From: Carcharhinus longimanus
Lineage: Eukaryota
DNA: 64,000 nucleotides
Reading direction: 5' to 3'
Assembly (NCBI GenBank): GCA_030264375.1
Contig: JASCQW010000119.1
Coordinates: forward strand, 8,482,137 to 8,546,136
Shown: piece by piece, positions 2,383 to 47,047 of the stretch
Layout: each line of letters begins with the position of its first letter
How positions within the stretch are numbered: position 1 is the first letter of the stretch
Translations under genes and position numbers: made by a program
The notes under the pieces: model-generated
The model's database searches: none
Seen by the model: the letters and a program-made list of their open reading frames with translations, nothing else
What the model was told of the DNA's origin: nothing

Positions 2383-2418
2383 AATGTCATGCATTAAAGG
2401 ACATTATCGAGGAAAAAG
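2383..2418 (+). CDS. 36-nt phase-1 micro-exon, (E)CHALKDIIEEK, of B30.2 gene
   Basis: ttttaatctccag|AATGTC...GAAAAAG|gtatga; length divisible by 3, open in phase 1, helical charged peptide. Confidence 0.75.
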
Positions 2419-2967
2419 GTATGATTATGCATTATTCACATTTATTGTCAACGTGTTTAAAATACCGATTTTCGATTCTTTTTGCGAATCGGAGGATATG
2501 TCAAATGCCAAAAGAGCAGGGCAATCACTTTCGATGTGCGAATTTAAGAGACAGCGAGATTTTTTGAACTTACCTCAAAGTGCCGTAGCCAAAACAAAAG
2601 CCAACGTGAACCACAGAATTTGGCTCTTGTTTGTCCTGCACTTCAAATGAGTCCAGGAGTTGGAGACATACCACGAAAAAAAAACTATTCCTCATTCACC
2701 TTCCACAAATTTCAGTGTTGAAGCAATTCCTGTAAGAAACTCCGAAATTCAGGTCTGTTCAACTATTCGAAATGACATCCCTGCGAATTAATATGAGAAG
2801 TAAAATTAGTTTTTTTTTGACGTTACAAGTTCCAGTACCATTTACGCTCCACAGGAGTACGTGACGTTACAAAGAATACACTCCCAATCTTTGTCAAATG
2901 ATCCTGAAAGCATATCCACAGTACATAAATAGGTTAACAGATAACACTGGACTATAGTTATTCCCAA

Positions 2968-3058
2968 AAGCAGCTCACCACCACCTTCTCAAGCTCAACT
3001 GATGATGGACAATAAATATTGGCCAACAGTGATCCTATGCCCCACGAATAAATAAAAT
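2968..3058 (+). mobile_element. Degenerate LINE (L2-like) 3' tail
   Basis: cagctcaccaccaccttctcaag...aataaatattggcc...aataaataaaa; related copies near 8725-8810 and 33950-34090. Family is recalled, not searched. Confidence 0.5.
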
Positions 3059-4459
3059 ACGCGTCAAAAAATGACCGAATCTATGTGGCATCTGCAAAGG
3101 GATTTTCCCTGGACAGCCATCATGATCGCCATTGTTGACTTCCCTCTTGATAATACACACATGGTCATAATTGGCAATGATTTATATCTTTACCAGTATA
3201 CCTACTGTGATTTCAATGAAAGGTACATTCTGTATTATCTTGATAATATAAGAGCAAAAAACAAAAATTCCGGTCAACTTTTCATCCTAAGTAATTTGCT
3301 TCAGCACTTTATTTTATGGTGAGGTTTTAACCGATCTACCTGCTCCTCTCAACATGTTTTTCCATTCCCAAATACTCTGTGCATCCCAGTACTGAATCAA
3401 ACATAATGAAGCACTATACTTAACGGAATTTTCCATCGATTCCAACATATTCAAGGGCCAAAGCTTTAAGATAAATGCAATTCGAATGTGGATGACTCCT
3501 TATTTATTTCTCAGTTCCAATCCGCCATCTGCGTGGCACATCGTGAGTTTTTGATGTATGATGGGAAATTTGGAGTCTAGATCCATGAACAATCAATAAA
3601 ATGCAGACTACAAATGATGGAGAAAAATAAGTTTCTGGAGGAGCTCGGTGTGTCTTGCTAGCATCTGAGGACAGACGGGAACAAATATAATATTCCTCGA
3701 AACTAAATGCACTCACATTCTGATCTCTTTTTTTTTATTTCGTATCCGCAGCATCTGCTTCATTTTTGTTTTCATTAACACCCACGTTATTTAACACGCT
3801 TATTGATATGCTGCCGTAAATTCACTCACTCTTCCATCATTGTGAAATAACAGTGATGTCCAGCATACACAAAATGCTCGGGAGTATCCCCTCGACTCAT
3901 TTAACAGACAATCGCAAATCCCATTGCTGCATTATTTTTTAAAAAACACTCGGAACAGTTTGATGCTACCTGCATAAACGTGATTCTTACATTACAGTCG
4001 CGCGCAACCATGATTATAATTTAGTTACCATGCTCCCATTCCCACTTTCACAAAATTGTAGAATTAATAGACCAACAGCAATTAGTTTGTATCACCATGA
4101 AATGATTTCCAGTACTTCAATAGTACACTTCAGCGGCACATGATCAAGGGCAATTCTCGAGGTATGCTAACTCCCAGTTCGAAAAAAAATATTTTAAACA
4201 GACTGCATTTGCAGTGCACCACTGTCATCTGTCTGTGCCTTGCAAGTTGAAACATGGTTCAACTTTCTCAACATCATGTTGAAAAATTGAAATCCAGCTT
4301 CACACAACAAATTCATTCTGTGAGGGACAGAAATTGAAAGACGAGGGAGCTGTTTCAATGAAAAGTAAAACGTAGAACACAGTGGGAACACATTACCACA
4401 TGTGAAATAATGAAAAGCAAAGGTTTGGGAAAGATGGGGAAAACATCATTTGTTTTCAG

Positions 4460-4760
4460 TGTAAGAAGGTGTGACCAACACAGCACCAATGGTTCAGATC
4501 GGTATTCGGAACAGACATTGGGTAAGAAAAAACGTCCAGTGGCATTGATTTGGGTAGTACAGGAATTCCAGCGATTGGTCGAGGAGCTGAAGAAGCGTGC
4601 ATCGCCTCAACATGGGCTGAAAAGTAAGATTGTGCAGACTGTTTTTGAAGGATTTGCCAGTGTGAGTAGAACTTACTCAGGTAGAACGCGGGAGTAGGTA
4701 AATACGTTAAATATTGAGAGGTACGACAGCTAGTCTGTCTCTAAGTGTAGGATATTAAAA
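4460..4760 (+). mobile_element. Very degenerate CR1 ORF1 (esterase-like) fragment
   Basis: QEFQRLVEELKKRAS resembles CR1 ORF1 E(F/Y)RELGRKLKSRTS; frameshifted. Confidence 0.35.
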
Positions 4761-5249
4761 TATTAGCACTCCTCCTGACGTATTACCCAAGGTAGAGGAA
4801 ATGTGCGAAATACATCGAGATAGAAAGGTGTCCCCATGTGTAAAGTAAGGCAAGGAAGCCCAAGCATGAATGGGAAAGTGATAGTGGGAATGAGGAAATA
4901 AATGGCTATTCCATGAATACAGTTATTTGTTGCAAAACAAAATAGTGGATCATAGGTGGGTGTGATATCTGTTGAAGTTTTCTTTTGTTAAAATGAGGAA
5001 AGCAGGGCACTGAGGAGTTAAAAAAATGCCCTGGATTTTATTTTTATTTTTCCACACTGTGTGGCGCTTTGATCCTGCAGCTATCGTTTAAATTGGAAGC
5101 AAGAATAAATGTCAAAGAAGAAGGAGTTGCGGTCCAATTACTTGACATTCTGTTTTGTGTGATGGAAAAGGAAAATGAAAAACAAAAGTAGAACATCAGG
5201 CAAAGGTATTTAATACTCAAGGATTAATAGATGGAAAAGAAAAATCGTC

Positions 5250-6240
5250 AGTCATAAGTGTTTACACCACGGACACAGTCAACTCGACTTACCTACTCCA
5301 TGCCACTGTTTTTCCCAAAAGAGCTAGTCACGATTGCCGGATTTATCCCACTGTACCCATCTTACCCATTTGCATGTCCACACAAGTAAAAGACTAAATT
5401 GGACGCGCCTCAATTACTTCATCTGGCACCTTGTTGCAGGCACTCAACAACTTCTGTGTGAAATAAAAGGGCCATGTGCATCCTTTTGTACCTCTAAAAT
5501 CTGACCTTGAACCGATGACATCTTGTATTAAACGCCACTAACTTTGGGAAACGATGTTGACTAATTCGCTGATTAATGCTTCTCGTTATTTTGTAGACCT
5601 TGGGAAGAACTCTGCGAAGCGTCCTATGCTCTGAAGGAAAAGTTGTCCGATTCCAAAACTTTCCATCCTCTCCTTATTTCTCGAATCATTAAGTTCTGGC
5701 AGCTTCCCAGTCAATCCGTTCTGCAGTTTTCTTTTCTGTTAATATTATTTCTGTAACAAAATTGAACGAACAAATATACAGTACTCAAAAGTGTTGTCTT
5801 TCTCATGGCTTACAACTTCAACAGATATCCCAAATACTTCATTCGACGTTCTGAACAATGAAACGAAGTATTTCGAATGGCTTCTTCAGCAGTGGATCCA
5901 CCTGTGGCTCTACGTCCAAAGAGCTATGAAACTGTATCATTCGTTCTTTTTTTTCCTTAACGTTCTCAAATGCCTTACCATTGACATTGCATGTCCTGCA
6001 TTTTTTGATCAACCAAAATGCATCACTTTGTTTTCTAAAATAAATTCCTTCTGCTATTTAGCAGTCCACTGACCCAACTGACCCTGATCCCGTTGCAACG
6101 CTAGACAACGTTCTTCACTACCCACTATACTATCAATCTTGGTGTAATCTTCAAAGTTATTAATCGTGTATCGCAAATTCTCATCCGAACTAGAAATATA
6201 AAACACTAATAACACTGAACTCAGCACTGATCCCTATGGA
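5250..6240 (-). mobile_element. 5'-truncated CR1 LINE (RT C-terminus and 3' UTR)
   Basis: Reverse strand gives a PxGSVL remnant (cagcactgatccctatgga near 6222-6240) and a FxDxTKI remnant near 6135-6155; many stops. Confidence 0.7.
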
Positions 6241-7499
6241 TCTAATTTCATTCATCTTTGAGAACGAAATACCTCTGTTTGATTCTCTACCGGCTTCACT
6301 TTTCACATTTTACGCTAATTAGACTGTGAATCGCTAGATTAATACATTATTGATTAATCATTAATGTAAATAAGCGAAGGCTTAAAAAAAGAAACCATAT
6401 TTTTCATGGGGCTGGAATACTTTTTATTTCGTAATGGAGGAGGTGCTGCAAATTCAGCTGCAGTAATTCCAGTTTTTTTTTTGGGGGGGGAGGGTAAAAA
6501 TGAACAATGTTAGGGACAAAGCATGGAATCATCCCTTTTAAAGTTTGTGTTTTGTCAATGTTTGTAGGTCCAAAAGCATGGAAATGCATAGAGAATTCCA
6601 AATTGAAAGAAAAGATGTACTGCAAAGCGAAGCATCAGTACTTCAGCAAGTCAAATAGATTTTGAGATTAGCCAATTTATTTGAATCAGACACACAGATA
6701 CCAAGAATCGAGTAAATTTGCATCTGCTAATTGCTTCCAACACGGGACCAAGACTGTTGTGCGAAACATTTAAATAACATTTCAGGTTAAAACAAAAAGG
6801 CGGGGGGCGGGGGGAGGGGGGGGGGGCACTGGGGCAAAAAGAGACAGCAACGTCCACCTACCAAAGGTAACGGCTTACATAGCTTTAACTATGTATCAGG
6901 ATAAGTTCATTCCATACAAGTAACGCACCAAAGAGTAGAAAAGTTCCATACCGAAGAATCAATATAAAATGCACAAAATGTCCTGGAAGACACAAAATCC
7001 GCTTGCAATTAGAATAGCCACTATATTCTAGTTAGTTCCTGAGTGGAAATTGTATTTATTAGAACAACACACGATTATGTTCTTGATTTATTCGTCAATG
7101 AATAACAATTAGAAAGGTTAATTTTGATTTGTTGATAGCGTATTTAATATATTCACGTTAGTTACACACGCACGTTGTTACATGCTGATTTTAGAGCGTG
7201 TGCAGGGATTATTTTGTACTCATCGACTAGAAGCTCCTGAAGTCCACAAACACAGACTTCCGATTATGATGCGAGGTTCCCATATTTAGATATTTTGGTA
7301 ATAGTTTTTAGAGGGGGAAACCAACCGTTGTTTTATAACAACGGTGTCCATGTATGGAAGTAACGTCTGCTGAAGCCATAAAAAGTGGNNNNNNNNNNNN
7401 NNNNNNNNNNNNNNNNNNNNNNNNNNNNNNNNNNNNNNNNNNNNNNNNNNNNNNNNNNNNNNNNNNNNNNNNNNNNNNNNNNNNNNNNNNNNNNNNNNN

Positions 7500-7576
7500 T
7501 TGTTTTTTTCTTAATTGGTCGGCGCAACATCGTGGGCCGAAGGGCCTGTTCTGCGCTGTAATGTTCTATGTTCTAT
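7500..7576 (+). mobile_element. CR1/SINE 3' tail ending in (GTTCTAT)n
   Basis: ggtcggcgcaacatcgtgggccgaagggcctgttctgcgctgtaatgttctatgttctat; the same tail occurs reversed from about 15194. Confidence 0.8.
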
Positions 7577-7590
7577 TTAATTTGGTCCAG

Positions 7591-7617
7591 ATCAAGCATT
7601 GGCAAAGAAAGACAAAG
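7591..7617 (+). CDS. 27-nt phase-1 micro-exon, DQALAKKDK
   Basis: tttggtccag|ATCAAG...GACAAAG|gtacat; moderate donor; joins its neighbours into a continuous coil. Confidence 0.7.
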
Positions 7618-9400
7618 GTACATTGTTTTACTTCATTCGGTGTTGTCGCTTAAATATTTTATGTTTGAACCTTTTTGTTCATTTTTGGGGTTACTCACGA
7701 TGACGGAATGGCACACGATCCGTTCTCAACCCAAATGGCAACTGATATCCGAAGAACCATTTTGACTTGTCTTTATTAAATTTTGGAGATGGACAGTTAT
7801 GTTCACAAGTCGAATGTCATTTCTTAGACAAATCTTGTAGCAACAGTGAATCAGTTTGCACCAACGAGAACTAGCTTCAGACTGCGGAAGTATACATAAA
7901 CTTTATGTCCGGAAATTCTACGTCTCACCGGCCATGGGAATCAGAGCGGCCAAGGGGTGGACAATGGACATGTTCGTTGACTCGTGGTGGGATTTTACAC
8001 TGTCGGAATGTGCGTGGCCGTAATCTCTTGCCCAATGCTGCAGCAGCTCGTTCAGTTTGATTTGAATCCAGTATCGCCAGAGCATTAACGACCCAGTTAA
8101 CTTTCCTCCAGGCCAACAGTTTCCCGATTTTCCCAACTTGTCCAATTTTCCGCCATTTGATAGTATTTTGATACAGCCTGCCGTTTGTGATTATTTCTAG
8201 GTGAATAAGTTTATCATTGTGATTCAATTACCCCTCCAAACGTTCCCAAAGATAAGCAATGCCACTTAACATGTAACAAATAAGTGTGCTTACCACTTGC
8301 TTTTCTTGAAATGACCGATGCCAGTTTTGTTGATTGCATGGAATATGAAAGATGGATATTTACATCAAGGGTGGTGGGTTATGAAAGGGAGAAAGATAAT
8401 GTCACAGCTGGAATCAAGTGTAAATTACAAAAACAGTCTTCCCGCTGTGCATATATTAAAGGAAAATGCTTAACTTGTTGCATTGCAGTATCACAACGGA
8501 ACGTGTTGGACAGCATGTTCCAAATCAGCAACATCTTCAAGCTCGAAAGACAATGATAGATGATGTATACAAGCATCACAATATGCATTCCAGCCGCACA
8601 ACATTCAGATTTTTGACATGTTTCCGTTCCTATACTATCGCTTCTTCAAAATCTGGAACAGCTTCCTATAGGAGCCCGAATGTGTTTCTTTACCAAATAG
8701 TCAGCAATCGTCCCAGGAGATAACAAGGAACGCCTTCTCAAGGACAATTTTGTATGGGAAACAAATGCTGGCCAAGCCGGAGATGTCTACGTACCACGAA
8801 ACGATAAAACAAATTGGCTCTTATAACTACATCAAACACGAGTTAGTTAATCGGAGTTAAGGATTTCTTTGCCAGTAAATTATTCCATATCGGTTCTCCA
8901 AAACAAAAGCCAATCTTACGTCAGGCATGAAATGCCTCTCACACATCACCAATTCATGATATACCTTGTGACATATTTTTGGCCCATTATATCCAAGAAT
9001 ATATTTTATACATGGACGTCGTGAATGTACACACTTTTTTTTGTCGCACAAAGTAATATATTGCTCAAAATAGTACGCAAAATTCCAAGGAGTGTAATTT
9101 CAAGAACACGTATCATTGCTGATATTAGGGGATTATTTTCAAGAATTATGTCAATGTTACACGCCGTGTATCGTTCTCGTTGTCTCAACAGAATTAGAGA
9201 AACAACGGATAAACAATCAAGAGTGTGGTGAGAGCAAAAAACGCAAAACATTTTTTCTTGAAATGTGAAGAATCAGCTCATTCATTCTCACGACCTGACA
9301 NNNNNNNNNNNNNNNNNNNNNNNNNNNNNNNNNNNNNNNNNNNNNNNNNNNNNNNNNNNNNNNNNNNNNNNNNNNNNNNNNNNNNNNNNNNNNNNNNNNN

Positions 9401-9510
9401 CCAGAATTGCACCCATTGATACCAACTCTTTGCTTCCTATTAGACAGCCAATCCTCTATCCACGCTAACACCTTACCCAAAATTCCGTGCACCCGAACCT
9501 TCTGCAGCAT
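9401..9510 (-). mobile_element. CR1 RT fragment
   Basis: ORF MLQKVRVHGILGKVLAWIEDWLSNRKQRVGING is a typical CR1 RT segment. Confidence 0.9.
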
Positions 9511-9767
9511 AACCCGACATGTATACGGAATGAAGTCTTACATCTTAGTTTGTAAGCATTTTACGGTATAAGAAGTCGTATTGTGTTAACCCCAGTTCAA
9601 CACCGGCATCTCCAAATCACGTATACGTTATTGCATCGAGAGATAACATAACCTTACTCGGGATATAAATTAATGCAAATTATATTGATAATTCTTTTGA
9701 ACCTTTGTTCTTGAATTCTTGTGTTCAATATCCATGTCAAACGTATGGAATTTCGGCTCTTCTGTAG

Positions 9768-9803
9768 AAATCCAGAAACTGGAAGACAAACTCACTGACC
9801 AAG
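9768..9803 (+). CDS. 36-nt phase-1 micro-exon, EIQKLEDKLTDQ
   Basis: ctcttctgtag|AAATCC...GACCAAG|gtgagt; consensus donor; coil peptide. Confidence 0.88.
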
Positions 9804-11764: not shown

Positions 11765-11835
11765 CTAACACCCTACCCCCAACTCCATGCCCCCTGACCT
11801 TCTGCAATAACCTCTTGTGAGGTACCTTGTCAAAA
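11765..11835 (-). mobile_element. CR1 RT fragment
   Basis: FDKVPHKRLLQKVRGHGVGGRVL. Confidence 0.9.
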
Positions 11836-12678: not shown

Positions 12679-12714
12679 AACTGGAGAAATTGCGTAAAAA
12701 GCTTCAAGACTGTG
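12679..12714 (+). CDS. 36-nt phase-1 micro-exon, ELEKLRKKLQDC
   Basis: tttccttcccctacaaag|AACTGG...GACTGTG|gtgagt; long pyrimidine tract. Confidence 0.88.
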
Positions 12715-14878
12715 GTGAGTCCTGGCGAAATAAAACGCTGATTCTTGTTGTATTTGTTCAATATCGTTGCCATTATTTAACACACTGATGCACTCATTAA
12801 TCGTTCAAAATTGACACTGTCAATATGATTACTACTATACAGATTATCTGGAAAGGATCCCTTTCATTTTGAAAATCAACAACTTAAATTTGGGTTCCAC
12901 AGTTGATTCCACGTATTAAGTATTTAAATTAATCCAATTCAACCATCCTTCAAACTAACGGCGACCTTACGCAATTAATTGTTAGCAGTATGAAAAACAA
13001 TTTGGACACCGAGCTCTACCAGTTAAACCAAGAAGACAAATTTATAAAGAAACAGATTCATCGGCCTTGTAGTTGCTTGGCATTCAACATTAAGATTCCT
13101 GTCAGCCAGCCCTGATTACAAAAAACGAACTGAAGTTCACAAATGAGAAAGTAAAACACGAGTTTAAATGTAAATAATTCAATTGGAGTATTGTGCTCTG
13201 GTTTACTGTCCAGAACAAACAGATGTTTCAAATTTTTATGTTGACCCATCATGGATAATTTCAAGGTATGCATCTTCCCCCTGAACTGTCGTGGAAATCA
13301 ATCGCCCCCAAATTGTTGTGGGGTCTTTCAATTCCGAATTTGAAGAGTCAGCGATCACAGCGAAAATCATTACGTGTTCCTTTCCACGAAGTCGTACACA
13401 TCATGTAACATCCACCATGCTTTATTTGTATAGTTAAGTATTGAATCAGCTGCGAAGAGGCTTCATGGATTAGTACAGTTCCAAAGTAAACTGGCTATTC
13501 GAATATTGCCAATATTCGCCCTGGCGTCCGGTTAATTGATTCAGACTTGTTGTTTCTGAATGTTTTGTTTCTAAACAGAAAGTTGATTAATTCCATCATC
13601 TGTCTCTCCTCCCACAATAATGTGCGCTTATCTAAACATGTTACCAGGGATCCAACTTGCAAACGATCTGCCACATATATCTGCTGTCGACGAGGTGCCA
13701 AGTCAATATCAAAATGGACACTTATTTTCTCGATCCCATGTTATCGCTCTCATCTGTATAGATCGCAACAATACCCATAATAATCATCGATATTTGCTGT
13801 CCTGTTGCGAGCAGTGTGTTAAATAATATGAGTCTAATGTTCTTCTATTATGTGTGAAATGCATGATGACACACTTCTCTCTTCCAAATCATTGCATGCC
13901 GCTTTACAGCGCACACAAAACATTAGAAGAAAAAAATAGTCTTATTAATAAGTAGAAATAAGCAATATTCAAATAATTTGAGGTTGTCCTATCATTCAGT
14001 ACAAACATTATTGTTGTCATTGCCGTCTCATCTGCAAGTTATTGCCTGCTCCCCAGAATCCGTTCACTCATTACTAAGTAAAGATATACCTATCTGCTCA
14101 ATCTGTTTCAAACCTTCTGTCTATTCATCTGCTGCACTCTGACATAAAATTTCATAGATTCAGGATCATTTGAGCGAAGTAATTTCTGGTCAATTTGGTA
14201 TTAAATCTGCTATTTCCGCCACCTGCCCCCCACCCCCCCGCAATCCTGAAAGTCCTGGCATTCTCTTCGAGAATCTTCACTCATAAGAAACATATGTTCG
14301 AGCTTTGTTTTCAATTTGATTGCTGTTATATTGCCAGTTGAATTGTGTAGAGTAGAACATATCCCCCTTATTCGTTATTCAGTAAATGCATACTATTCAT
14401 AAATCGCATAGAGGACAAGAAAAGAAAATGGTGCAGAACATATGTTACAGTCATAGCAAGGGTGTAACGAAAGGTGAAATTAAAACAAAGTAGGCTCAAT
14501 GAAAATTCTGATGGCGGCAGGCAAGAAACTGTTCTTGAGGCTGTCGGATTGTGAACTGATACTTCATGTTTTTTTTTCGATGGAGGAAGGTGACCAATGA
14601 AAAAAACAGTGCATACTTGAGTGAGCTCGCTGTTTCGGAGAAACATCAAATATGGAAGGTGACACTGAATGGAATGCCCGGAGAGGTGGGCTACATTCAC
14701 AATGATTTGTGCTTCATTGCGAACTTTTTTCAGAAAAGTATCCATAGAAAGATTTGATACATCCGGAAATAATGATTTCGATGAGAATTCAGTTAAAGTA
14801 TTTGACGCTTGTTTCGGGCATGCCAAATTTACTTAGTGCGCTGCGAAATTCCAGGTGTCTGTGGGTTTGCTTATAGCG

Positions 14879-15030: not shown

Positions 15031-15193
15031 TAACTGTGAGAAAGTGTTTATTTATGTGACACCATTTCAGCAAATTGCCTATATCATTCGTTTACTCCAT
15101 TTCAATCCATTTCAGTGTACTATTACCTCTTGCGTACGTATTTTAAACATAAAAAATATGGTTCCAAACTGTTAGTGCTTCGTTACAGAAGCA

Positions 15194-19994: not shown

Positions 19995-20021
19995 AACTAA
20001 AGATCAGCAGTGCAACCAGAG
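19995..20021 (+). CDS. 27-nt phase-1 micro-exon, ELKISSATR
   Basis: ttttcttactgcatttag|AACTAA...ACCAGAG|gtaaga. Confidence 0.75.
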
Positions 20022-24119: not shown

Positions 24120-24146
24120 AAAATCAGCAGAGCAATAACGACACAG
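24120..24146 (+). CDS. 27-nt phase-1 micro-exon, ENQQSNNDT
   Basis: gtttataacag|AAAATC...GACACAG|gtaaat. Confidence 0.65.
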
Positions 24147-24367: not shown

Positions 24368-24394
24368 AGCTAAGCCCGGACAGCAAACTAAGTG
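24368..24394 (+). CDS. 27-nt phase-1 micro-exon, ELSPDSKLS
   Basis: tttatttttttcctatttag|AGCTAA...CTAAGTG|gtaagt; both sites near consensus. Confidence 0.82.
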
Positions 24395-25007: not shown

Positions 25008-26560
25008 CTTAGAACATAGAACATTTTAGCACAGTAAGGCCCTTCGACCCTCAATGTTGTGCCAAGCTATGTCCAATCCCAAGATCAATTTACTCCACTC
25101 CTTGCTATTCTGGTGTGCTCCATGTGGCTATCCAATGACTGTTTGAAAACGCCGAAAGTGTCCGACTCCAATATCACAGCAGTCTATTCCACACCCCAAC
25201 CATTCTGTGAATGCAGAATCTACCTCGGACAGTCCTCCTATATCTCCCACCATGAACCTTATAGTTATGACCCCAGTAACAGCTACATCCACCCGAGGAA
25301 AGTGTCTGTGCACTTTCGCTCTATCTATCCCCCTCATCGTCTTATAAAACACTATTAAGTCACCTCTCATCCTCCGCAGCTCTAAAGAGAAAAGCAACAG
25401 CTCCTTCAACCTTTCCTCATAAGACCATCCCTCCATCCTGGTAAATTTCCTCAACACTCTCTCATTTGCTTCCACATCCTTCTTATTGTGCGGTGACCAG
25501 AACTGAATTCAATACTCCAAATGTGGTCTCACCATCGTCCGGTGTAGTTGCAGCGCAACTCCACAGCTCTTAAGCTCAAACTCTCTGTTAATAAACGCTA
25601 ACACACTATATGCCTTCTTCATGGCTCTGTCCACTCGAGTGGAAATCTTCAGAGATCTGTGGATGTTAACCCCAAGATTTTTCTGTTCTTCTACGTTCCA
25701 CGAAACACTGTCTTTGACACTGTAATCTGCATTCAAGTTTGTGCTATCAAAATGAATCGCCTCCCACCTATCAGGGTTAAACTTCATCTGCCACTTTCCG
25801 GCCCAGCCCTGCATCCTATCAATGCCTCTTTGCAACCTGCAACAGTGCCCCACCTCGTCCGCTACTCCATCGATATTGGTGTCAGCAGCAAATTTTCTCA
25901 CCCACCCTTCAGCCCCCTCTTCCATGTCAAAGATAAAAATCGCAAATATCAGAGGACCCAGCACTGAACCCTATGGTACACCGCTGGTAACTGGCCTGCA
26001 GTCTGAAAATTTTCCTTCCACCACCACGCTCTGTCTTCTATGAGAAGGCCAGTTTCTTATCCAATCGGCCAAATTTCTTTCTATCCCACACTTCGTTATC
26101 TTGTTCATGAGCCTCCCATGGAGAACCTTATCAAACACCTTATTAAAATCCATGTATACGACAGCAACCGGTCAACCTTCGTTCACACACATAGTTTCCT
26201 CCACAAAAAAAATCACATTTTTGTCAGGACTTATTCCCCATGAAACCATGTTAACTAACCCAGTTTAAACTGAATCTTTCCAAATGATCATAAATCCGAT
26301 CTCTAGGACTCTTTCCATTAACGTACCGACCACCGAAATAAGTCTAACAGGCCTATAATTACCTGGGTCATTCCTATTTCCTTTCTTGAACGGAGGAACA
26401 ACATTCACCACTTTCCAGTCCTCTGGCACAATTCACGAGGACAGTGAGGAAGCAAAGATCAAAGTTGAATGCTCCGCAATCTCATCCCTTGCGTCCCAAA
26501 GTATGCTCGGATGGAGCTCAGGGGATTTGTCCACCTTCAGGTTTTTCACAATCGCTAATA
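25008..26560 (-). mobile_element. 5'-truncated CR1 LINE (RT)
   Basis: DFNKVFDKVLHGRL, VTSGVP, LGPLIFAIFI..KFAADTNI, VRPHLEY; (agaacat)n tail at 25010. Confidence 0.92.
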
Positions 26561-28557: not shown

Positions 28558-28584
28558 AACTTGAAAACTTCAAAGCCAAGTGCA
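28558..28584 (+). CDS. 27-nt phase-1 micro-exon, ELENFKAKC
   Basis: cactttatcctcag|AACTTG...AAGTGCA|gtaagt. Confidence 0.82.
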
Positions 28585-28799: not shown

Positions 28800-31625
28800 G
28801 CAGTTCCTCAGGGATGGACATCTGCTGCTAAACTGATCTGGCCAATCAAAACTAGTTAATACGGCAGATGAATTTCGAGCTTGGATTCGTACTTGGAACT
28901 GTGACGCTGTTGCCTTAACAGAGATTTGGAAATAAAGTAAGTACGTACGTAAGGGCAGGACTGTCAGCTGAACATTACATTATGCAGATGTATCAAGCTG
29001 CATTATTTGAGATGTAAATATGGTGGGGAGTTGCACTACTGATTACGGAAAATATCAAACCTATACTTCTGGAAGACACATGGGAGGGCACATAGAGGGA
29101 AGCGATATGAGTCGGACTAGGATGGGCGTAATCGTAATGTTCGGGGTTCACTGTAGGTCTCCAAACAACTGGCGTGCGATAGAAGAATATCTAACTAAGT
29201 AGACTTTGGCAAGCTGTAAAAGTAACAGGGTTTTTGTGGTGGGTAATTTTAACTTCTATTCTATAGACTGAGACTCACTTAGTGCTTGAGACGTTGACAG
29301 GCAGAGCTTTATTTTGCAAAAGCATCCAGAGGGCTTTCTGAAGTAGTAAGTAGATGGCCCAACGAGGGTACGGACCGTCACAGACATGCTGTTGGCAATG
29401 AGCTTGTCCAGGTGATAGCAGTTCGGGATCAGTGACCACAATTCAGTAAGGTTTAAAGTGTTCATGGTTGATTATATGTTTAGTACTATGGTGAAGGTGC
29501 TAATTTGGAGAATTCTATTACAACAATATGATCCAGGAACTGCAGAATATAGATTGGGGGGCAGATCTTTGAGGGCAAATCATCTTCTGGCATGTATGAG
29601 ACATTCAAGTGAAAGCTGATTGGAATGCGGGAACGGCAAATCACTGCAGAGATGAAATATAAGTCTTGCACGTTTCAGGAATGCTTGTTAACTAGCGATA
29701 TTGTGAGTCTAGTCAAAAAGGACAAGGAACCATTCGTCAAAGCCATGAGATTTGGGAACACATAAACCAAGTGTGAAATACAAGGATAGCCGAGACAAAC
29801 TTAAACAAGATGTCAGGAGGGCTGCAAGCGTCAAGAACGTCAGTAGCCAGCTGGCTTCATGTAAATTGCGATTTTTTATATGCATATATACAAAGAAGCG
29901 TGTAGCCAGCGACAGGATTTGCCCACTCAAGGACAAGGGAGGGAATATATTCGTGGAACAGTTGGAAAGTGTGATGTACTAAATTAATACCTGCATTATT
30001 ATTGACCAAAGGGAAAGAATTGGCGGATGGTGAACGTGGGGAAGGCTGTGCAGATAGTTTGTGTAATGTTGAGATCAAAAAAGGACGATGCACTGGGGGT
30101 CTTGAAAAGCATTAAGTTAAACAAGCCACCATGGCCTTATAGTATATATCACACAATACAGAGAGCGGCAAGGGAGAACATGGCAGGGGCATTGAGAGAA
30201 ATCAATGTTTAGTCGCTGGCCAAGGGGTGTTCCAGAGGATTGGAGATGAATATAAATCCTGTTGGTCCTTTGCTTATGAGGATAGCAAGGATAACTCAGG
30301 TAATTGCAGGCCCGTGAGCCTTTTTTCAGTGGTAAGGAAAATATTGAAGAAGATTATTGGAGCCAGGATTTACTTCCACTTGGGAATAAGCGGATATATT
30401 AGCGGCAAGCAACATGGTTTTGTGAAGAGGTGGTCATTCTAACTAACCTGATCGATTATTTTGAGGAAGGGGCAAAGGTGTTTGCTGAGTGTGGGAGAGT
30501 GGAAATTGGCTGCATGGACTTCAGCAAGCCCTTTGAGAAGGTCCCTCGTGGAAGACTAGTGCAGAAGGTGAAAACGCATGGGATCAGAGGTGATCTGGCA
30601 AGGTGGATACAGAGCTAGCTTTGTTACAGAAGACACATTGTATCTGTGGAATGGTGCATTTTTGTTTGAAGGGTTGTGACTAGTGAAAAACCTTACAGAT
30701 CAGTGCTGGAACTTATTGGTATATCATTTTTTTAAAAAAAAGATGATTTGGAGGAAAGTGCAACTGATTGATTAATAAGTTTGCAGATTGAACAAGGGTT
30801 GTAGGGATTGCGAACAGTTATGAGGACAGTCAGAGTACAAATTAGGATATAGACTGGTGGGGACTTGGGCGGAGAGATACCAGATGGTGTTTTATTCCGA
30901 GAAATGTGAGGTAATGCGTTCTGAAATGTCTAATACAAATGGGAACAATAGAAATGATTGATGGGCAAGATGATTTGGGTGCACAGGTACAAAGTCACTG
31001 TCAGTGGCAACACAGAGCGGACAAGGTAATCAAGGTGTCGTATGAAGTGCTGCCTTCATCGGCTGGGCCATTAAATCTCAACCTTGGTAAGTCATGTCGC
31101 AGCTTAAGAGGACCTTAGCCTGGCTGTATTTTCAATAAAGTGTACAATTCTGGTCGCCACGCTACCAGATAGAAGTGAAAGATTTGGAGATGGTGCAGGT
31201 AAGATTTGTAATGATGTTGCCTGGTATTCGGGGCATTGCCTATTAGGAGAGATTGGAGAAAATTGATTTGTTCACACTGGAAGGAGAGAGTTTGTAAGAT
31301 TATGACGGACATGGACAGAATGGATAGTCAGAAGACTTTTCCTAAGCCAATTGCTAGGATCATCGATTTCACGTGCGAGAGGCAAGATTGAAAGAATGTG
31401 TCCAAGGCATTTTTTTTTTACACACATGACGTTGTGTGCCTGGAGCTTGCTTCCGTCAGAAGTATTGAAATCAGATTCGATGGTAACTTTTAAGGGTCAT
31501 CTAGACAAATAGAGCATGAACATAAGGAAATGTTCCCCTGAAAACTAGAGTTTAATTCTGACGGGCAGCATATTAGGTGAATGGTCAGAGGGCGGTAGGG
31601 CGAACTGCTGCGTTGTATACTTCTG
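28800..31625 (+). mobile_element. Degenerate CR1 ORF2 (APE plus RT) and 3' UTR
   Basis: VVGNFNF endonuclease remnant near 29235, GNCRPVSL, KQHGFVK, DFSKPFEKVPRGRLVQKVKTHGIRG; many stops. Confidence 0.9.
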
Positions 31626-32696: not shown

Positions 32697-32723
32697 AAAA
32701 AGAGTTGGAAGTAAAAGACATTG
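32697..32723 (+). CDS. 27-nt phase-1 micro-exon, (K)KELEVKDI
   Basis: cttacttttttttag|AAAAAG...GACATTG|gtaaat. Confidence 0.78.
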
Positions 32724-32861: not shown

Positions 32862-32891
32862 AACTCCAGAGGTTGAAAGAAACTCACAAAG
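32862..32891 (+). CDS. 30-nt phase-1 micro-exon, ELQRLKETHK
   Basis: tctccttccttag|AACTCC...CACAAAG|gtaaag. Confidence 0.82.
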
Positions 32892-34895: not shown

Positions 34896-34925
34896 ATGCG
34901 GACGATGAGAGCGACATTATCTCTG
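34896..34925 (+). CDS. 30-nt phase-1 micro-exon, DADDESDIIS
   Basis: Long T tract, ttaag|ATGCGG...ATCTCTG|gtatta; weaker donor; purine/GC-richer island in AT-rich flanks. Confidence 0.55.
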
Positions 34926-35616: not shown

Positions 35617-35643
35617 AACTTGCCAAACTCCGTCAAAAATACA
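35617..35643 (+). CDS. 27-nt phase-1 micro-exon, ELAKLRQKY
   Basis: tttcccttttcttccag|AACTTG...AAATACA|gtaagc. Confidence 0.85.
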
Positions 35644-36789: not shown

Positions 36790-36985
36790 ATGATATGTTG
36801 TCATATTCAGCGCAAACTCCATATTCATGTTTTCTGATGACACCACCGTGGTTGTTAAGGATCTCAAAAAAAAAATCGTCGTGACAGGGTGTAGGAAAGA
36901 AACAGAGAATCCGGTGAAATGTTGCGACAGCGGGAAGCTCCCCTCAATTTCAGCACATCGATAGTCATCGACCTCAGGAAGGACA
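36790..36985 (+). mobile_element. Rex1/Babar-like RT fragment
   Basis: FSDDTTVV and IVIDLRK remnants. Confidence 0.75.
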
Positions 36986-37339
36986 ATGTTTATCCTTTTC
37001 ATAGGTGTTGGTGGAATACAATGAAGAACATGCTTGTGTGTGCGCTGCGACAACAACACATGCCATTCATGGTGTGCAAACTGAAGAAGGAAAGGGGAGG
37101 ACGCAGAAAATAAGTTACAGTAAAAACTATGCTTACAAGAAAAATATCGATTTAATACGTGGTATGCCCATTCAAATGCCTGATCGCAGCATGAAATCCA
37201 CTGTTCTGCAAACATTCGATACTTCATTTAAGATTACTGCACCTTTTTTTTTCTTCCCGATAGAATACGGTGACACGTATTATGTATGCGGTGTGTGAGT
37301 TAATTGATTATATTATCTTACTGTCCGAAGCAGCAAGGA

Positions 37340-40146: not shown

Positions 40147-40170
40147 TTGATGCCAGTGAAAAGATTTTGG
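40147..40170 (+). CDS. 24-nt phase-1 micro-exon, (I)DASEKIL
   Basis: atcgacag|TTGATG...ATTTTGG|gtaagt; yields the continuous coil ELAKLRQKYIDASEKILDLQDKLQD. Confidence 0.75.
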
Positions 40171-41305
40171 GTAAGTCTGGTCCGAATCATATGTATGTTA
40201 AATCCAACTTTCAGTCTCTGCTCGCGGTCATTTAACATTTCAATGTTTGAAAAATTGCACTGTGAAATGTATGCTCTCCTCCCCGCACAATATTGTATTG
40301 TTTGTTTTCGCTGCCTGAAAGGCACATGTGCGTTTCAATGTTGAAAAAAAAAAATGTTTTTCAAATCACGAAACATGACAGTTGCCAAGAATGCACCCAG
40401 TTTCATCGTGTCATCCCGTGTTGGTTTGCTTGAATATCCAGGCTGCGATGGATAAGATCCTATGAAATGGAAAACAAAATGCATTGTGCTTTGTCGACTA
40501 AAAAAAATCATGCTCCCTGACAGTTTCTCGGAAGTCCATAAGACTATTATTAGCCGATTCGAATATTACTGGAAGAACACTTCTGACCCACTGACCTTAT
40601 TCAAGGTTAATGCTGCAAAATGAAGAAGAAACTTGAGTAAGCAACACAGTCCCATAATTAAAATAGATCACATAATGTAATTATTGTATTCATTTTTTTA
40701 AGTAAAGGCAGCTCGAAAACAAAAAGAAGACAATCGTCATACAATGTGATCCTGAATTTGAATTTAAATAAATAAATAAACAGACAAACAAACAAAAAAA
40801 GAACTAACAAACAGTGCACAAATGAGATTTGCATCCTCTATCATAGACTTGAGCATCCCCGCTCCACTCAAAGAATGTGGCTTCAATTCCAGCTCAAATA
40901 CAAGAGCAATAGATTGCAAATGCCTGAAATCGAAAGGCAAACAATCACCTACAGATTGCAAGCTTCTCAAGCATATGTGAAGTTTACTTTGAGTGTTCAA
41001 TGCTGAGATAAGTTACTTGACCAATAACGTTAACGTCACTCTTCAATCATTGTCAAAGTGTTGTATATTTGCAATATTCTCAGTTGTCTTTGATTTAAAT
41101 AAATGAATTCGATAATGTTTTGATAAACTAATCGACAATTGGCGATAACTGCCTCGCACACACTATTGAAAATCGCACTGAATTCTATTCTGCAAATTTG
41201 TCATTACAAACATGGAGAAAATCATGGAAATGAACAATTGGCTTTTAAATCTCAATTTTTGTTCATAATCAAGGCAGAACGATCATGAATGTTCTTTCCC
41301 TTCAG

Positions 41306-41341
41306 ACCTTCAGGACAAGCTTCAGGATGCACGCACGACAG
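41306..41341 (+). CDS. 36-nt phase-1 micro-exon, DLQDKLQDARTT
   Basis: gttctttcccttcag|ACCTTC...ACGACAG|gtatgt. Confidence 0.85.
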
Positions 41342-42353
41342 GTATGTAAAAAAGACTGGTCAACTTCATTCAGGCACATATTGCCAATGCCAAACTACTG
41401 GAAAGGCACAAAAAAAAAGAACATTGAACTAATCGAATAAATTCCAACAGTGAATTAGAAAACTCCAGTATCCTTTTTTTTGTTGCAGTTTGGACAGGAA
41501 GAATCAAAACTTTCAGAGGCCTCGAATTTCATGTTCCAGCCTCAGATCGAGAGTAGCCCTAAATCGCCGCTCTACATAACAATTTTGTACATCTGTATAT
41601 TAACTGCATGGAAATAATTTCGTGTCCATGGCAAGCAGACCACTGTGAGTGATGGAAATGATGATATCGCATTCAACCAAGTATACAAGTTTGTTAGAGT
41701 GAAAAAAAACAAGATACGCAGATGGTGATCGCCTGGTTCCTTTGTTCAATACTAATTTTTACACGTGTGAATTTCACCAAATGTGCTGTGCCCACCTTTA
41801 TTTTGGATTTTTCAATCCTTTGTCAGATGGAAATTGAATCATAACATCTGATAGCTTTTAATTTATTGCTCACATATAATAAACATGCTCATTAACATGA
41901 TATCCAAAAACAAGGAAGCTGATAATTTATGCCTCCTTTACATCTTTTGAATCATCATTTAAATTAAATGAATTTGATGTTGCTTTATTGTCCGCGTCAC
42001 CAAGAGTACTTGATTGGCATAAAGTGCGAGAAGATGAAGGAAGTATTTTCATTGTCATTGCAACATAGAAGACCTGGAGATGTTTTGAAGGATTAAACGA
42101 AAGAATGTGGGCAAAATCCAAGTCTCCAGCGTAAATGAGCCTTTGGGAACCGATCTCTGCTGATCACAAAACTTTGGAAGACAACTCCCAATTTCACTAA
42201 AATAGTCTCCACTGTACCTAAACCGAAAGATTGAACCAAAATATGCATCCAACCACAGAAAGAGGCCCATTGGGCCTATTAGGGGTTTGGCGGATCTCTG
42301 CAATGTGTGCTAAGTTGCCTGTTTCCATTATCTGTTGTTTCTTTTCCAAACAG

Positions 42354-42374
42354 CTTGCAAGTACTCGGGCAAAG
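42354..42374 (+). CDS. 21-nt phase-1 micro-exon, ACKYSGK
   Basis: tgtttcttttccaaacag|CTTGCA...GGCAAAG|gtgagc; 21 nt is the classic butyrophilin heptad-exon size. Confidence 0.8.
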
Positions 42375-42949
42375 GTGAGCGCAGTTTTCACACTGCAGCA
42401 CCGAGTAGATTCTGTAGCCTATGGACATTGCGCAGAAGAATGATAGAACTGTTACATGAGTCCGTTTTGGATATATTTAGGTAGCTGAACAGGCTGTGAT
42501 CAAAATATGTTGCCCACAAAATACTACACCGTCATCTGGCTTCACTGAAATATATTAATCTTCTATAGAAACACTGAAAGAGCAGGCACTTATATTGTGC
42601 AAACGCACAGAATATAACGTGTAACTGTATCCATATCCGATCATTAAATCACCAATGCCGAAATGTTTTCGTTTATTAGGATCAGTCCTATGTCAGCACT
42701 GACACAAACTTATACAAATCAGGTTAAGGCTTAGATATTGCATATAGTAATGTATTCATCACACAAATGGCTTGAATTATAAAAATATTGGGAGTTATAA
42801 AAACACATTTCAATTAATACTAACTTGTCTTCAGAAGAAACACTTTCAAGGATTAAATTTGTGTGCAACATAAATTTGGTTACTGCCTGATGATATTTTT
42901 TGTTGTGTGTGCAAAATCTCACACATTCCATTCGTACTGGAAAATCCTT

Positions 42950-44930
42950 CAAATGCATCGGATCAAAACAATCAAAAAAGAAAGAACACTCCCATGCCCA
43001 ACAGCATCAAACCATCTCTCATATATTTGAATATGAAATATCACACATATCAAAGAGCATAACACATCGTTCTGTTTGCATTAGAATTATAATATCCCTC
43101 GATGAGTTATAAAATAATTTCCATTTTTTTTTTGCTATGAACATTTGTCCATCCCCAAACTTATAAATAGCATGATGTCATTGATCTGTAGAAAACCATC
43201 TCCAATGTCGTTCTCTACATCACAATGAAATAATCTCAAATATTCGCTGGAATGGAAAAGTGATATTGTGGAAATAATGGTATTATGTATGATATCAGAC
43301 CACAACCATGTGACAAAAAATAACATGTTCAGCATTCATAATTATGATAAAATCTTTCTTATGTATTCAGAAACCATTATCCCATTGATCTACGTGGAAA
43401 ATAGAAAAAAAAACACATCTCCCTGATCTATCAATAGGAAATAACCTTCAGTCATCTTAAATCACATATATCAATACGAAAATCACCAGACATTTATTAA
43501 AAAAAATCAAATCACACAGACAGTATAACCATCAATAAAATTAAACACCTTTTTTTACTGAAGATGAAAATTTTGCAAAATTGGAGCGATTATGACATTA
43601 TCTCTAATTTCTACAACTATAAACGTTATCCCTCCATGGCATTCATACCAGAATCATAGATGCTTGTCTTGTCTGTATTGGAACTGTCTGGAAACAAAGA
43701 AGAAACTCAGTACGAAATACTTCTCCCACCTCCACGAAAATGGACACATATTCCATGTCAATAAACTGAAATATCACTCGTATTGATCAGAACGAAAATA
43801 AAATATTATTTTGCATCATTCAATAGTAACACATTGTCCATACCGCTCAATACGGAAAACATTGTCATCTAATTTCAACAGAAATTATGTCATATGACCA
43901 TCAGAAAATCCAAAAAGGACACATTCTAAACAATTAAAAACAAAAAGAAGACCATTAATATTGAAAGTTGCTCCAAAATGTATTGGGATTAACAATGGTC
44001 AATATCTATCCGCACTAAAGTCTGTTCCACATCTATCAATTAGTATTAGCGTAAATTGATTTGACAATTGTGTTCTATGTATTGGCAGGAAAACAAATCG
44101 CTCTACTGGGGGAGAAAAGAATCTTCCAGTAATTCCAAAGGGAACAAAACTCATTCCAAACAAAATTAAAATCAAATACGTTCATCAATCGAGGGTGGTG
44201 GGGCGGGGTGTAGCGAGGTGGGGGGAGGGAGCGGGGGGCTGGTGGTGAACTCCAAAATTCAAGGTAATGATACGATATCACACGAATCTCCCAGTGAGTA
44301 GTAACATTTCTCATTTACAACAACATTACAAACAATATATCTTAATAGAAAATAAGATTGCAAACTTGACGTTTCCATAAACAACAGTGCATTCTCATCT
44401 CGATAAATGTGAAATTTATATATCAGCACGAAAGTATCCTCCGATTACTGTCAACATCAAGAAATCTCACAGCAACATAAACATGGAAAGCCATCTCCCA
44501 GATCAATTTGCAAAAAAAAACACTCCGACTGCGATCCATTGACATTGGAATCTCTCTACCATATCCTTCAGGCCGACAGCATTGCCTTTATCCATCACCC
44601 GAATAACGCATTCAAAATGCAATTATATCCCATGCCATTGACAAGAATGGATTAAGCATATTCATCGATTGAAAAAAAACAATATTTCATGTTAGTGCAA
44701 AGTCGAAGAGCGATTTTGCGAAATGCATCAATATAAAAACGTCCCCTATATCCATCAAGACTGGAACATATCATGTTTCCATCAATTTGATAATACACTT
44801 TAAACACCCATCACAATTAAAATATGTCTCACATACTATTATGCAATTTCCTTCCATATGTTCTAACATAAAATCACGCCAAGTATCAATCCAGTATGGA
44901 AACATTCACCAATCCCTTTATATAAAATTT
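42950..44930 (+). repeat. Degenerate ~27-bp tandem array (approx. CCATCAATATGGAAACATCTCCCATAT)
   Basis: CATCAA at 44726, 44753 and 44780 (27-bp steps); recurrent aaacatctccca and atccatcaat motifs; A/C strand skew. Confidence 0.6.
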
Positions 44931-45683
44931 GCAGAAAAGACTTAAAATTTTCACTGAGATCCCGAAAATAAAGGGAACATCGATTCATTCCGCCGCAAAC
45001 CCTTTTGGGAATGGCTGGTCGTTTCTTTACAGTACATCTGAGAAACCCTTAATGGTACATCGGTAAAAAAAAGTTTTTCCCCAACTCATGTTGCTAAATT
45101 CACATAGCAGTTGGCAATTGTAGGCGTTAATCAGCTGGAAATCCAAAATCAGCATAACACATGTTGCAAATCTGTTAAATGAGTATTTGGCATGGGCCAG
45201 CGTTTAATTGAACAGAGGTACATGACGTTGCGTCAATCGGATGTTTTTTTTTCCGACCCCCCCAATCATGTTTCGGCCCACTTATTACATCACATTGCAC
45301 TATTTGGGAAACGTGTATCTGAATGTAAATAGTGTATTATTCCCACTACAATTATAAGCAATGACACATGGTTCTATTCCAAACTCGTCGTCATGTTCAT
45401 TAGGAAATGAGATAAAATATTCTCGGTTTATTCCAAGTTCTGAAAATTTCAACATCTCCTCTGTATTGGCAGTGGTGTTACTGGACGTTGCCTGGTGGTA
45501 CTCAGCTTGGAATCTAACTGTTCTGCACTTTGTTGAGACGAAGACGTAGATCATTGAAAATAACCGAGTGTTCCACTCTGGCCGTAATTTAAAGTTCATG
45601 CAAATGAGTGTTGAACTTGAAAGAAAATTAAGTTGTCAATATCTGACTGCATTTTCTCCCATGGCCTCAAAAAAAATGTTTAG

Positions 45684-45710
45684 ATTTTAAAGAGGTATCC
45701 CGTCATAAAG
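45684..45710 (+). CDS. 27-nt penultimate exon, DFKEVSRHK
   Basis: atgtttag|ATTTTA...CATAAAG|gtaaga; a 27-nt phase-1 exon before the B30.2 exon is typical of BTN and many TRIM genes. Confidence 0.8.
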
Positions 45711-46526
45711 GTAAGACATAAACTCTCGATATTTTCTTCTGTCCTCAAAAATGTTAAGTTCATTTGACTTTTTTTTTGTTAACAACCCCAACATATCCTC
45801 CTCCCCCCCAACACCCCCCGCTCACACCCGCAAGCCCGCCCATTAAGTTCATCATTTCTGCTCTTCGATATAATTTCTCAGGAAGCATGTCATCGACAAT
45901 GGATGTAGAGGCGTCTCAAATATTTGCAAAACATGTTTGAATGCCAGCTGCCATTGGTAAGACGAATCAATGTTGCAGCTTAGCAGACAATTTAGTTTTT
46001 AACGTGTTTTGCATACAGGATTATAAAAACACAAACATACACAAGGTAAACCTCTACACCAACAAACGTGATTTTCTTCACACTTATAAAATAACAGGAG
46101 TGGTCTGAGACAGTGCTGATCCAACAACTGAAGTTTGAAGTTTTTCTTTCCACAGACAGTGGGGCTATGTGAATAATAAGAACCTTATTACATATTATTA
46201 CAAATTATTTTGAATTCATGATTTTTTTTTTGTTTTTCTACAGTCCAACAAGTTGCATGATGCATCATGACATTGTACATGATAGCTATTGGGATACTTT
46301 TCGTTATTTGCTTCTTCAAATGATTTACTGATTAATTATATGTATTTTGTAATGTAGTAGTTTGTCGGGAAAAGCAACACGAACATCATAGACATGAACA
46401 GATATGGTGTGTTTTTTAGATGGAAAAAGGTCAACGATCAACAGAGATTGTCATGCCACGACTTGTGTTTTGAGTTCTATTTTACTTCATGCGTGTCAGT
46501 GATTTTTTTTTTCGTTTGTTTTCCAG

Positions 46527-47047
46527 TTCCATTAGTGCTGAATACCCGAAGTGCTGATCCAAGATTCGTCTTAGGAAAGGAAAAAAACAGCATCACCTGG
46601 AATGGTCCTATTATAGCGAGCCCAGATGTCACCCCAAAGAAGGAGGAGAGTTGGACACGATGGCTCGACGAAGGAATTCCACCTGGAAAGAACTACTGGG
46701 AAGTTGAGGTCAGCCCAGGGACAGTCTGGACCGTTGGAGTCTCACAGCGCATCCGGCCCATGGGTCGATTCACTAGACCCTTTGCCAAGGACGGTTACTG
46801 GACCATGATGATGTGGAATGGCAAAGGCAGCCATGATAAATTAAGGTCATTTGGTGTGTCCATCATGTTGATCAAACTAGATAAGCTGGGGGTTTATGTG
46901 GACAGCGATGAAGGTCAGGTGTCGTTCTACAACCCTCACAACGGTGCCCATGTGCACACTTTCAAAGCTGAGATGACAGGTAAAGTTTACCCTGTCTTCA
47001 AGCTTTGGGCGCTCACCCGCCCTTCTGGCACAATGACCATAGTTTAG
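46527..47047 (+). CDS. Terminal exon encoding a B30.2/PRY-SPRY domain (butyrophilin-like or TRIM-like protein)
   Basis: Strong acceptor tttgttttccag|TTCCA; motifs GKNYWEVEV, WTVGV, GYWT, KLGVYVDSDEGQVSFYN, HVHTF, KVYPVF; intact to TAG. Confidence 0.95.

Follow-up and report, generated by a model that had tools for sequence, protein, structure and literature searches.

The 64,000-nucleotide stretch of Carcharhinus longimanus DNA analyzed here, referred to throughout as the window (C119:8,482,137-8,546,136, where C119 is contig JASCQW010000119.1), holds the 3' end of a predicted gene in which a long series of very short exons, or micro-exons, leads into a single terminal exon encoding a B30.2 domain. 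Splice-site scans located all 16 micro-exon units reported in a first-pass annotation of the window, with sizes exactly as given there (465 nt summed), AG..GT flanks, and a phase-1 frame free of stops, and a scripted check of their joining to the terminal exon at 46527-47047 yielded a 327-residue open frame. A strong 36-nt unit at 12679-12714, with an AAG acceptor, had been overlooked and raises the number of window units to 17.

All of these features lie on the + strand. The window opens in an intron (1-2382) of a gene that extends upstream, the previous called exon standing ~5.1 kb before the window start. Phase-1 micro-exons of 36 nt are found at 2383-2418 (score 12.2 in the self-trained model described below), 9192-9227 (18.3), 9768-9803 (15.6), 12679-12714 (17.5), and 41306-41341 (17.3, with a counterpart in a minus-strand paralog). 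Those of 27 nt occupy 7591-7617 (10.5), 19995-20021 (12.6), 24120-24146 (13.6), 24368-24394 (19.1), 28558-28584 (13.7), 32697-32723 (13.9), and 35617-35643 (22.4), the last encoding LAKLRQKY and having counterparts in two paralogs and in the catshark model XP_038668997. A 30-nt unit at 32862-32891 (8.3) and a 21-nt unit at 42354-42374 (8.8, with cysteine-led counterparts in paralogs) are likewise in phase 1. Three units carry weak splice sites under the scoring model used: the 30-nt candidate at 34896-34925 (5.2; donor -1.8), which is the least secure in the window; the 24-nt phase-1 unit at 40147-40170 (2.7; acceptor -4.9, donor strong), which has a positional counterpart, judged by eye, in a catshark model; and the last 27-nt unit before the B30.2 exon, at 45684-45710, in which an A-rich acceptor (-11.2) is paired with a strong donor. 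This last unit has counterparts in paralogs, and a block matching it is present or absent among chimaera RefSeq isoforms. The self-trained model recovers 14 of the 17 units. The terminal phase-1 exon ends in a stop codon at 47045-47047, the first AATAAA beyond which (47236-47241) is a candidate polyadenylation signal called from sequence only, and unit scans of window positions 47,100-64,000, past the B30.2 exon, revealed no such array.

The possibility that strings this short arise by chance can be addressed from their lengths, strand, and frame. Taken by itself, the window offers modest evidence against chance. At a splice score of at least 7, lengths are divisible by 3 in 12 of 17 units on the + strand and in 8 of 15 on the - strand; with a looser cut over the whole window, the counts are 22 of 35 and 6 of 20. 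A larger test over 1,046,527 bases, using splice scores alone without a composition filter, is decisive. Nearly equal numbers of pairs pass on the two strands (230 on + and 210 on -), but lengths of 21, 27, and 36 nt account for 23, 35, and 33 units on the + strand as compared with 7, 6, and 5 on the - strand, with the remaining lengths flat. Moreover, of the 91 + units of these three lengths, 2 carry a stop when read in phase 1 and 45 do so in each of the two remaining frames; for the 18 - units the corresponding numbers are 5, 7, and 7. A self-trained model, cross-validated on alternating 50-kb blocks, returned 228 + and 19 - hits (136 and 0 at a strict cut), a control that is not fully independent because the model's positives were picked over the whole span; a held-out upstream stretch gave 20 + and 2 - hits.

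Scanning of contiguous DNA over 1.5 Mb (C119:7,045,001-8,546,136) indicates that the array is far larger than its portion in the window. The 43-kb array of about 16 micro-exons proposed by the first-pass annotation accurately describes the window's share, apart from the one unit missed, but same-strand (+) units of 21, 27, and 36 nt run a further 1.1-1.25 Mb upstream, so that its size was ~25-fold too low. The array was traced to C119:7,277,150, 1.2 Mb upstream of the window, with a median exon spacing of 2.9 kb. From this end, a block of 27/36-nt exons comes first (7.277-7.398 Mb), the interval 7.406-7.745 Mb is occupied chiefly by 21-nt exons, and 27/36-nt exons return from ~7.76 Mb to the B30.2 exon. 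The model makes 226 calls over the array, ~21 of which are expected to be false; among 206 non-overlapping calls, 82 are of 27 nt, 63 of 36, 44 of 21, and 17 of other lengths. On this evidence the 17 window units close a series of more than 200 predicted micro-exons. When the 226 calls are adjusted for unspecified bases (N), missed exons, and false positives, the estimate becomes roughly 280 exons encoding 2,100-2,900 residues, which, if helical throughout, would form a rod an estimated 310-430 nm long. Within the array, at C119:7,808,400-7,835,081, acidic/basic exons of 18 and 27 nt that are nearly the same in sequence, and whose flanks also match, reflect a recent local duplication.

The peptides encoded by these exons have the character of a coiled coil. 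Because composition and position 2 are features of the model, only the other positions provide independent evidence. Hydrophobic residues occupy positions 2, 5, 9, and 12 of the 36-nt exons (n = 60) in 80, 77, 87, and 38% of cases, and positions 2 and 5 of the 21-nt exons (n = 35) in 80 and 43%. Proline makes up 0.6% of residues in the predicted exons. One heptad corresponds to 21 nt and three heptads to a 27- plus a 36-nt exon. Across 19 runs of close exons the periodicity peak lies at 3.40-3.45, and the actual exon order gives better periodicity than random partners (p 0.02-0.03). The hydrophobic residues are thus heptad-placed. The earlier suggestion of a micro-exon-encoded coiled coil joined to a B30.2 domain is supported, as is that of BG-like heptad exons, which form the 21-nt block upstream.

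The symmetry of the exons has consequences for both splicing and evolution. A stop is created at only 243 of 18,721 possible skip junctions, since almost any exon can be duplicated or skipped safely when phase 1 is symmetric and exon starts are A-rich, and this near-universal safety explains how the array could grow by exon duplication. In three species, four pairs of RefSeq isoforms are distinguished by a single block each, of 9, 6, 9, and 9 residues; all four differences carry the split-codon pattern and all four break the heptad register. RefSeq isoforms of this kind are usually backed by RNA-seq introns. The first-pass annotation had proposed frame-neutral exons that tune stalk length combinatorially. 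The frame neutrality agrees with both the junction counts and the isoforms. Length tuning does not fare as well: one exon adds 7-12 residues (1-1.8 nm) to a predicted rod of 2,100-2,900 residues, and when a 27- or 36-nt exon is skipped on its own, the frame survives but the heptads fall out of register by 2 or 5 residues. Single blocks barely alter rod length, and the case for splicing as an effective control of stalk length is weak.

The terminal exon encodes a B30.2 (PRY-SPRY) domain of divergent sequence, which matches Pfam SPRY with an E-value of 2.5e-13. AlphaFold predicts a β-sandwich with a confidence (predicted local distance difference test, pLDDT) of 79, and Foldseek aligns it with the B30.2 domains of TRIM7 and BTN3A1 at a template modeling score of ~0.7 and 21-27% identity. 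Among three close paralogs, the ratio of nonsynonymous to synonymous change (dN/dS) across the domain is 0.31-0.39, and a relative's contig differs by 4.0% over the B30.2 exon as opposed to 6.1-7.6% over five intron contigs. In an unrooted tree, 16 family rows, picked by similarity, form one side of a branch with 100/99 support, opposite 15 BTN and 23 TRIM rows that are themselves intermixed. A family hidden Markov model (HMM) outscores BTN and TRIM HMMs for 18 of 390 proteins, with a gap of >100 bits to the rest. As judged from these sequence comparisons, the B30.2 domains are a clade of their own, occupied only by cartilaginous-fish models.

The window gene is one of several of its type in the genome. 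Six further B30.2 exons of this kind were found, at 6.33, 9.02, 9.09, 10.68, and 11.29 Mb of C119 and one on C81, bringing the number of intact B30.2 frames to seven, and same-strand units occur upstream of all six, four of which were sampled only. A head-to-head neighbor (C119:6,328,410-7,182,615, - strand, at least 855 kb) repeats the design of 27/36-nt followed by 21-nt exons, with the 21-nt exons at its far end, and the interval between the two genes (C119:7.183-7.277 Mb) is a possible shared promoter region. A second pair of this kind may be formed by the genes at 9.09 (-) and 10.68 (+) Mb. The next paralog (C119:8,598,741-9,018,716, +) starts within ~70 kb of the end of the window gene and is ~420 kb long; its first exon was looked for and not found. 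In the C81 paralog, five near-identical 36-nt units (C81:94,291,189-94,307,445) could represent tandem duplicates or exons used in a mutually exclusive manner. The short family member lies inside a large cluster of B30.2 exons at C81:85.9-102.0 Mb that includes several butyrophilin-like IgV exons. Family models of catshark, basking shark, and bamboo shark are placed on contigs equal in length to those bearing TRIM models of those species, a hint that the family arose in the C81 cluster.

Named database members are all chondrichthyan, coming from chimaera, sharks, skate, and ray. Models of the same subfamily include XP_042192744 and XP_042191566-8 from Callorhinchus, XP_038668997 and XP_038672306/8/9 from Scyliorhinus, XP_055510696 from Leucoraja, XP_069775384-90 from Narcine, GCC29430 from Chiloscyllium, XP_078422387 from Cetorhinus, and XP_060706632 from Hemiscyllium. 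These models are 175-1,697 residues long, mostly 200-460, none reaching the full length predicted here; where modeled, their N termini are coiled coils, and they bear automatic names only, such as TRIM39/58/69-like. Catshark XP_038672306 maps in order onto the units of the C81 paralog; four matches in a row, at residues 230/238/247/256, fall exactly where exons of 24/27/27/48 nt would put them. Together with the isoform pairs, this mapping provides indirect evidence of splicing. A catshark model shares 66% identity with one paralog, as compared with 49% for an electric-ray model, which leans toward a shark; the origin proposed in the first-pass annotation is supported at the level of cartilaginous fish, all named relatives being chondrichthyan. 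Word-indexed protein searches found few family members, proteins >2,000 residues being outside their reach, and no description of the gene family emerged from literature searches outside subscription journals. In chimaera XP_042192744, residues 905-1025 form a low-complexity 8-residue tandem repeat within the rod; its N-terminal ~390 residues (393 searched) had no match in this genome and no usable match in a wider database search.

Taken jointly, these data would allow a reading in which cartilaginous fish possess a gene family, so far undescribed, with seven or more members, of which six are spread along 5 Mb of a single chromosome. Its genes would be assembled almost entirely from symmetric 21-, 27-, and 36-nt exons, and the window gene would be a single transcription unit of ~1.25 Mb in which ~280 micro-exons encode a ~2,800-residue, ~400-nm rod ending in B30.2. 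So detailed a joint reading is offered tentatively, and we lean slightly to the skeptical side of it.

Whether such genes should be counted among the butyrophilins or the TRIM proteins depends in large part on their 5' ends. As a positive control, a BTN HMM was run on three butyrophilins absent from its training set and matched their IgV windows at E-values of 1e-14 to 1e-34; it finds a shark butyrophilin IgV window at 1e-24 or better. The same HMM found no IgV or IgC exon in the 1.5 Mb of C119 scanned, N gaps included, and 81 kb around the 5' end of the next paralog (1,660 N) gave no Ig or RING match. In all DNA scanned, BTN and TRIM HMMs matched only B30.2 exons. Among 364 open reading frames (ORFs) of at least 80 residues in four 5' regions, 46 have Ig- or RING-like cysteine spacing, none of them with an Ig or RING domain in Pfam, and none of six family models scanned with Pfam has either domain. 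The 5' end of the C81 paralog is bounded because a ZIP zinc-transporter gene, presumably SLC39A1/3-like, lies directly upstream; its terminal exon (Pfam Zip, E-value 1e-45) is on the same (-) strand at C81:94,367,418-94,368,140, and the 26.4 kb between it and the first unit of the paralog (851 N) contain no detected Ig, RING, or transmembrane exon. Hydropathy scans for a transmembrane exon upstream of the array gave unconvincing candidates only. The search for upstream exons that might distinguish a butyrophilin from a TRIM gene, suggested by the first-pass annotation, found no Ig, RING, or B-box exon in the DNA scanned. An inverted-similarity search between the head-to-head genes also yielded nothing convincing, the best match resembling, by eye, a long interspersed element (LINE) fragment. 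As far as sequence can tell, the gene is neither a classical butyrophilin nor a TRIM gene, and the butyrophilin membership assigned earlier is not sustained, given the absence of a detected Ig exon and a B30.2 clade apart from both families.

Comparison with known systems nonetheless identifies informative relatives in design. Chicken BG tails are encoded by many phase-split 21-nt heptad exons and presumed to form a coiled-coil dimer, their length varying with exon number, and the tail has been linked to actin-myosin regulation (PMC5938342, PMC4046983, PMC8813856). The resemblance is in the heptad micro-exon tail and, in particular, the 21-nt block (44 calls). BG proteins have IgV and transmembrane regions, ~29-38 repeats, and no B30.2, whereas here Ig and transmembrane exons were not found in the DNA searched, B30.2 is kept, and >200 exons in three size classes cover >1 Mb. 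In BTN1-3, short heptad exons lead into a terminal B30.2 exon, and heptad-exon skipping is reported for macaque BTN3A (PMC6790196, PMC8813856, PMC12841164). Short phase-1 heptad exons and a B30.2 domain in a single terminal exon are thus common to the butyrophilins and the present genes, but the former combine IgV, IgC, and transmembrane regions with few heptads, and the latter, in which IgV, IgC, and transmembrane exons were not found, have B30.2 domains only 23-27% identical to those of BTN structures and in a separate clade. The TRIM39/69 and A33/NF7-like proteins share a coiled coil with C-terminal B30.2, differing in the RING and B-box not found here and in the encoding of the present coiled coil by micro-exons. 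To our knowledge, the schistosome micro-exon genes specify small secreted parasite proteins unrelated to these, and we know of no rod or B30.2 among them. The likeness is confined to very short exons and long introns (bioRxiv 10.1101/2023.06.21.545858).

The closest functional parallel may come from a different quarter. Guinea pig enterophilins combine a long heptad rod of ~45 heptads with B30.2 and are not known to have Ig or RING. This is the same combination as that predicted here, making enterophilin the best functional model, although the present rod would be about eight times longer. The B30.2 domain of a bovine "enterocytin-like" protein (DAA16448) groups with mammalian BTN2 and outside the present clade, so that an independent origin is likely; this test of common descent used the bovine sequence as its enterophilin-type member. 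Enterophilin-1 is linked to sorting nexin 1 (PMC13749957). With respect to known genes, the one predicted here shares the butyrophilin/BG exon architecture but did not pass the tests for Ig and RING, and it is a departure from these families rather than a member.

The explanation we favor, which is evenly poised between holding and failing, is that of one giant gene encoding a soluble, probably cytosolic, coiled-coil dimer ~300-430 nm long with two B30.2 heads at one end. By analogy with enterophilin, the gene would probably be a butyrophilin tail module stripped of its ectodomain. Under this proposal, the butyrophilin cytoplasmic module of short heptad exons and a B30.2 exon would have become uncoupled from Ig and transmembrane exons and then enlarged through repeated exon duplication, rendered frame-safe by symmetric phase 1. 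More than 200 micro-exons would be spliced with the B30.2 exon into one transcript. The rod would dimerize as a parallel coiled coil, as BG tails are presumed to do (PMC8813856, PMC4046983), and its paired B30.2 heads could bind a partner avidly, as in TRIM and butyrophilin B30.2 domains. The product might then serve as a long tether or cytoskeletal scaffold, comparable to the BG-derived zipper protein or to enterophilin, with skips of single exons introducing local register shifts or kinks rather than setting length.

Several observations weigh against this explanation. The micro-exons are known here from genomic DNA alone, four aligned sequence runs being contigs that span the introns evenly and hence DNA, and their splicing into a single transcript, although likely, is inferred. 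The 1,252,033-base span includes 123,216 N, and N also make up ~12 kb of the 94 kb separating the head-to-head genes; tblastn, BTN/TRIM HMM, hydropathy, and ATG-donor scans found no first exon or start codon for the window gene. The actual exon order improves periodicity weakly, in that it does not outdo partners of the same length (p 0.09-0.14). In 18 close exon pairs, an excess at the third position appears only in the 36-nt class (12/10/20) and is lacking in the 21-nt (15/7/7) and 27-nt (9/10/7) classes. The tree neither puts the family inside the butyrophilins nor names a parent family, and because it does not, exon architecture is the sole argument for an origin from the butyrophilin module. 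Cysteine, at 3.9% of residues and present in 58 of 180 high-scoring exons, would suit secretion or anchoring, as would hydrophobic N-terminal stretches in XP_042192744, XP_055510696, and XP_060706632, stretches that could be genuine leaders or stem from intron sequence read as coding.

These last features are what one would expect of a secreted or signal-anchored fibrous protein with a short hydrophobic first exon, cysteine cross-links, and a terminal B30.2 head in a collectin- or angiopoietin-like layout, an explanation that we regard as unlikely, if the least so of the alternatives. The cross-links would come from cysteine, which occupies position 5 in 31% of the exons of 21 nt and in 20% of those of 36 nt, and a short leader exon would be missed by HMM searches. 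Yet other models show similar hydrophobic starts from intron read-in, the multi-isoform catshark, electric-ray, and chimaera models begin with hydrophilic sequence, the bounded intervals contain no convincing leader or transmembrane exon, the chimaera N terminus is among the sequences unmatched in this genome, and cysteine clusters are possible in cytosolic BG tails too (PMC5938342). Rather improbable is a division of the array among several tandem genes or internal promoters, with B30.2 only on the 3'-most and the 7.277-7.398-Mb block perhaps separate. In the minus-strand paralog the 21-nt exons come first, but the present array has a 27/36 block ahead of them; exons are sparse at 7.36-7.40 Mb, and the short public models would fit smaller genes. 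Against such a division, no further B30.2 occurs between 6.33 and 8.53 Mb, no terminal-type exon was noticed, one chimaera model extends to 1,697 residues, and short models would be expected if aligners lose micro-exons.

A membrane receptor of butyrophilin or BG type with an extreme cytoplasmic tail, its Ig and transmembrane exons hidden in assembly gaps or too divergent to detect, seems more improbable still. Heptad exons before a phase-1 B30.2 exon are the butyrophilin layout (PMC6790196, PMC8813856), both head-to-head genes have 21-nt exons at or near their 5' ends, and the N in the gap between them is joined by nominal 100-N gaps whose true size is not fixed; but the control-tested HMM found no Ig match at three 5' regions, one of them bounded to 26 kb, none of the 46 Cys-spaced ORFs matches Ig in Pfam, no family model has Ig, and the clade is separate. 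That the units are chance splice-like strings or parts of a decayed pseudogene is very improbable. Some LINE and other repeat fragments do mimic units that are known from DNA, but the strand, length, and frame statistics, the seven intact B30.2 frames with dN/dS below 0.4, and a RefSeq model mapping in register all argue otherwise; a very recent pseudogene may still be compatible with these data.

If spliced as predicted, hundreds of 21-36-nt exons in kilobase introns within one transcript would constitute an extreme test of micro-exon definition, and the gene would be among the most exon-rich of vertebrates. The butyrophilin heptad-exon module would be seen to detach and become a giant rod, bridging, in the oldest jawed-vertebrate lineage, the long BG tails without B30.2 and the short butyrophilin tails with it. 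Megabases of shark and ray genomes would prove to be coding where public models are fragments named TRIM or butyrophilin, and gene counts for both immune families would be affected.

Retroelement repeats such as LINE fragments yield false micro-exon calls, and several candidates were put aside in the course of the analysis. The 21-nt "exons" called at 7.213 Mb and at 7.439 Mb both belong to a genome-wide repeat and were rejected, and a 165-168-nt hydrophobic candidate at C119:7,893,690 was set aside as lying inside the array. In the window, 31169-31198 was dropped because it falls inside a high-copy repeat, and candidates at 14057 and 27266 are weak. A 27-nt phase-1 unit at 37264-37290 (score 12.4), encoding a tyrosine-rich, non-helical peptide to which the catshark model has no counterpart, was also set aside and is possibly an alternative exon or chance. 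The window also contains minus-strand retroelement fragments at 25128-25970, 49779-51139, and 63449-63844, which we take to be CR1/LINE-like and Penelope-like.

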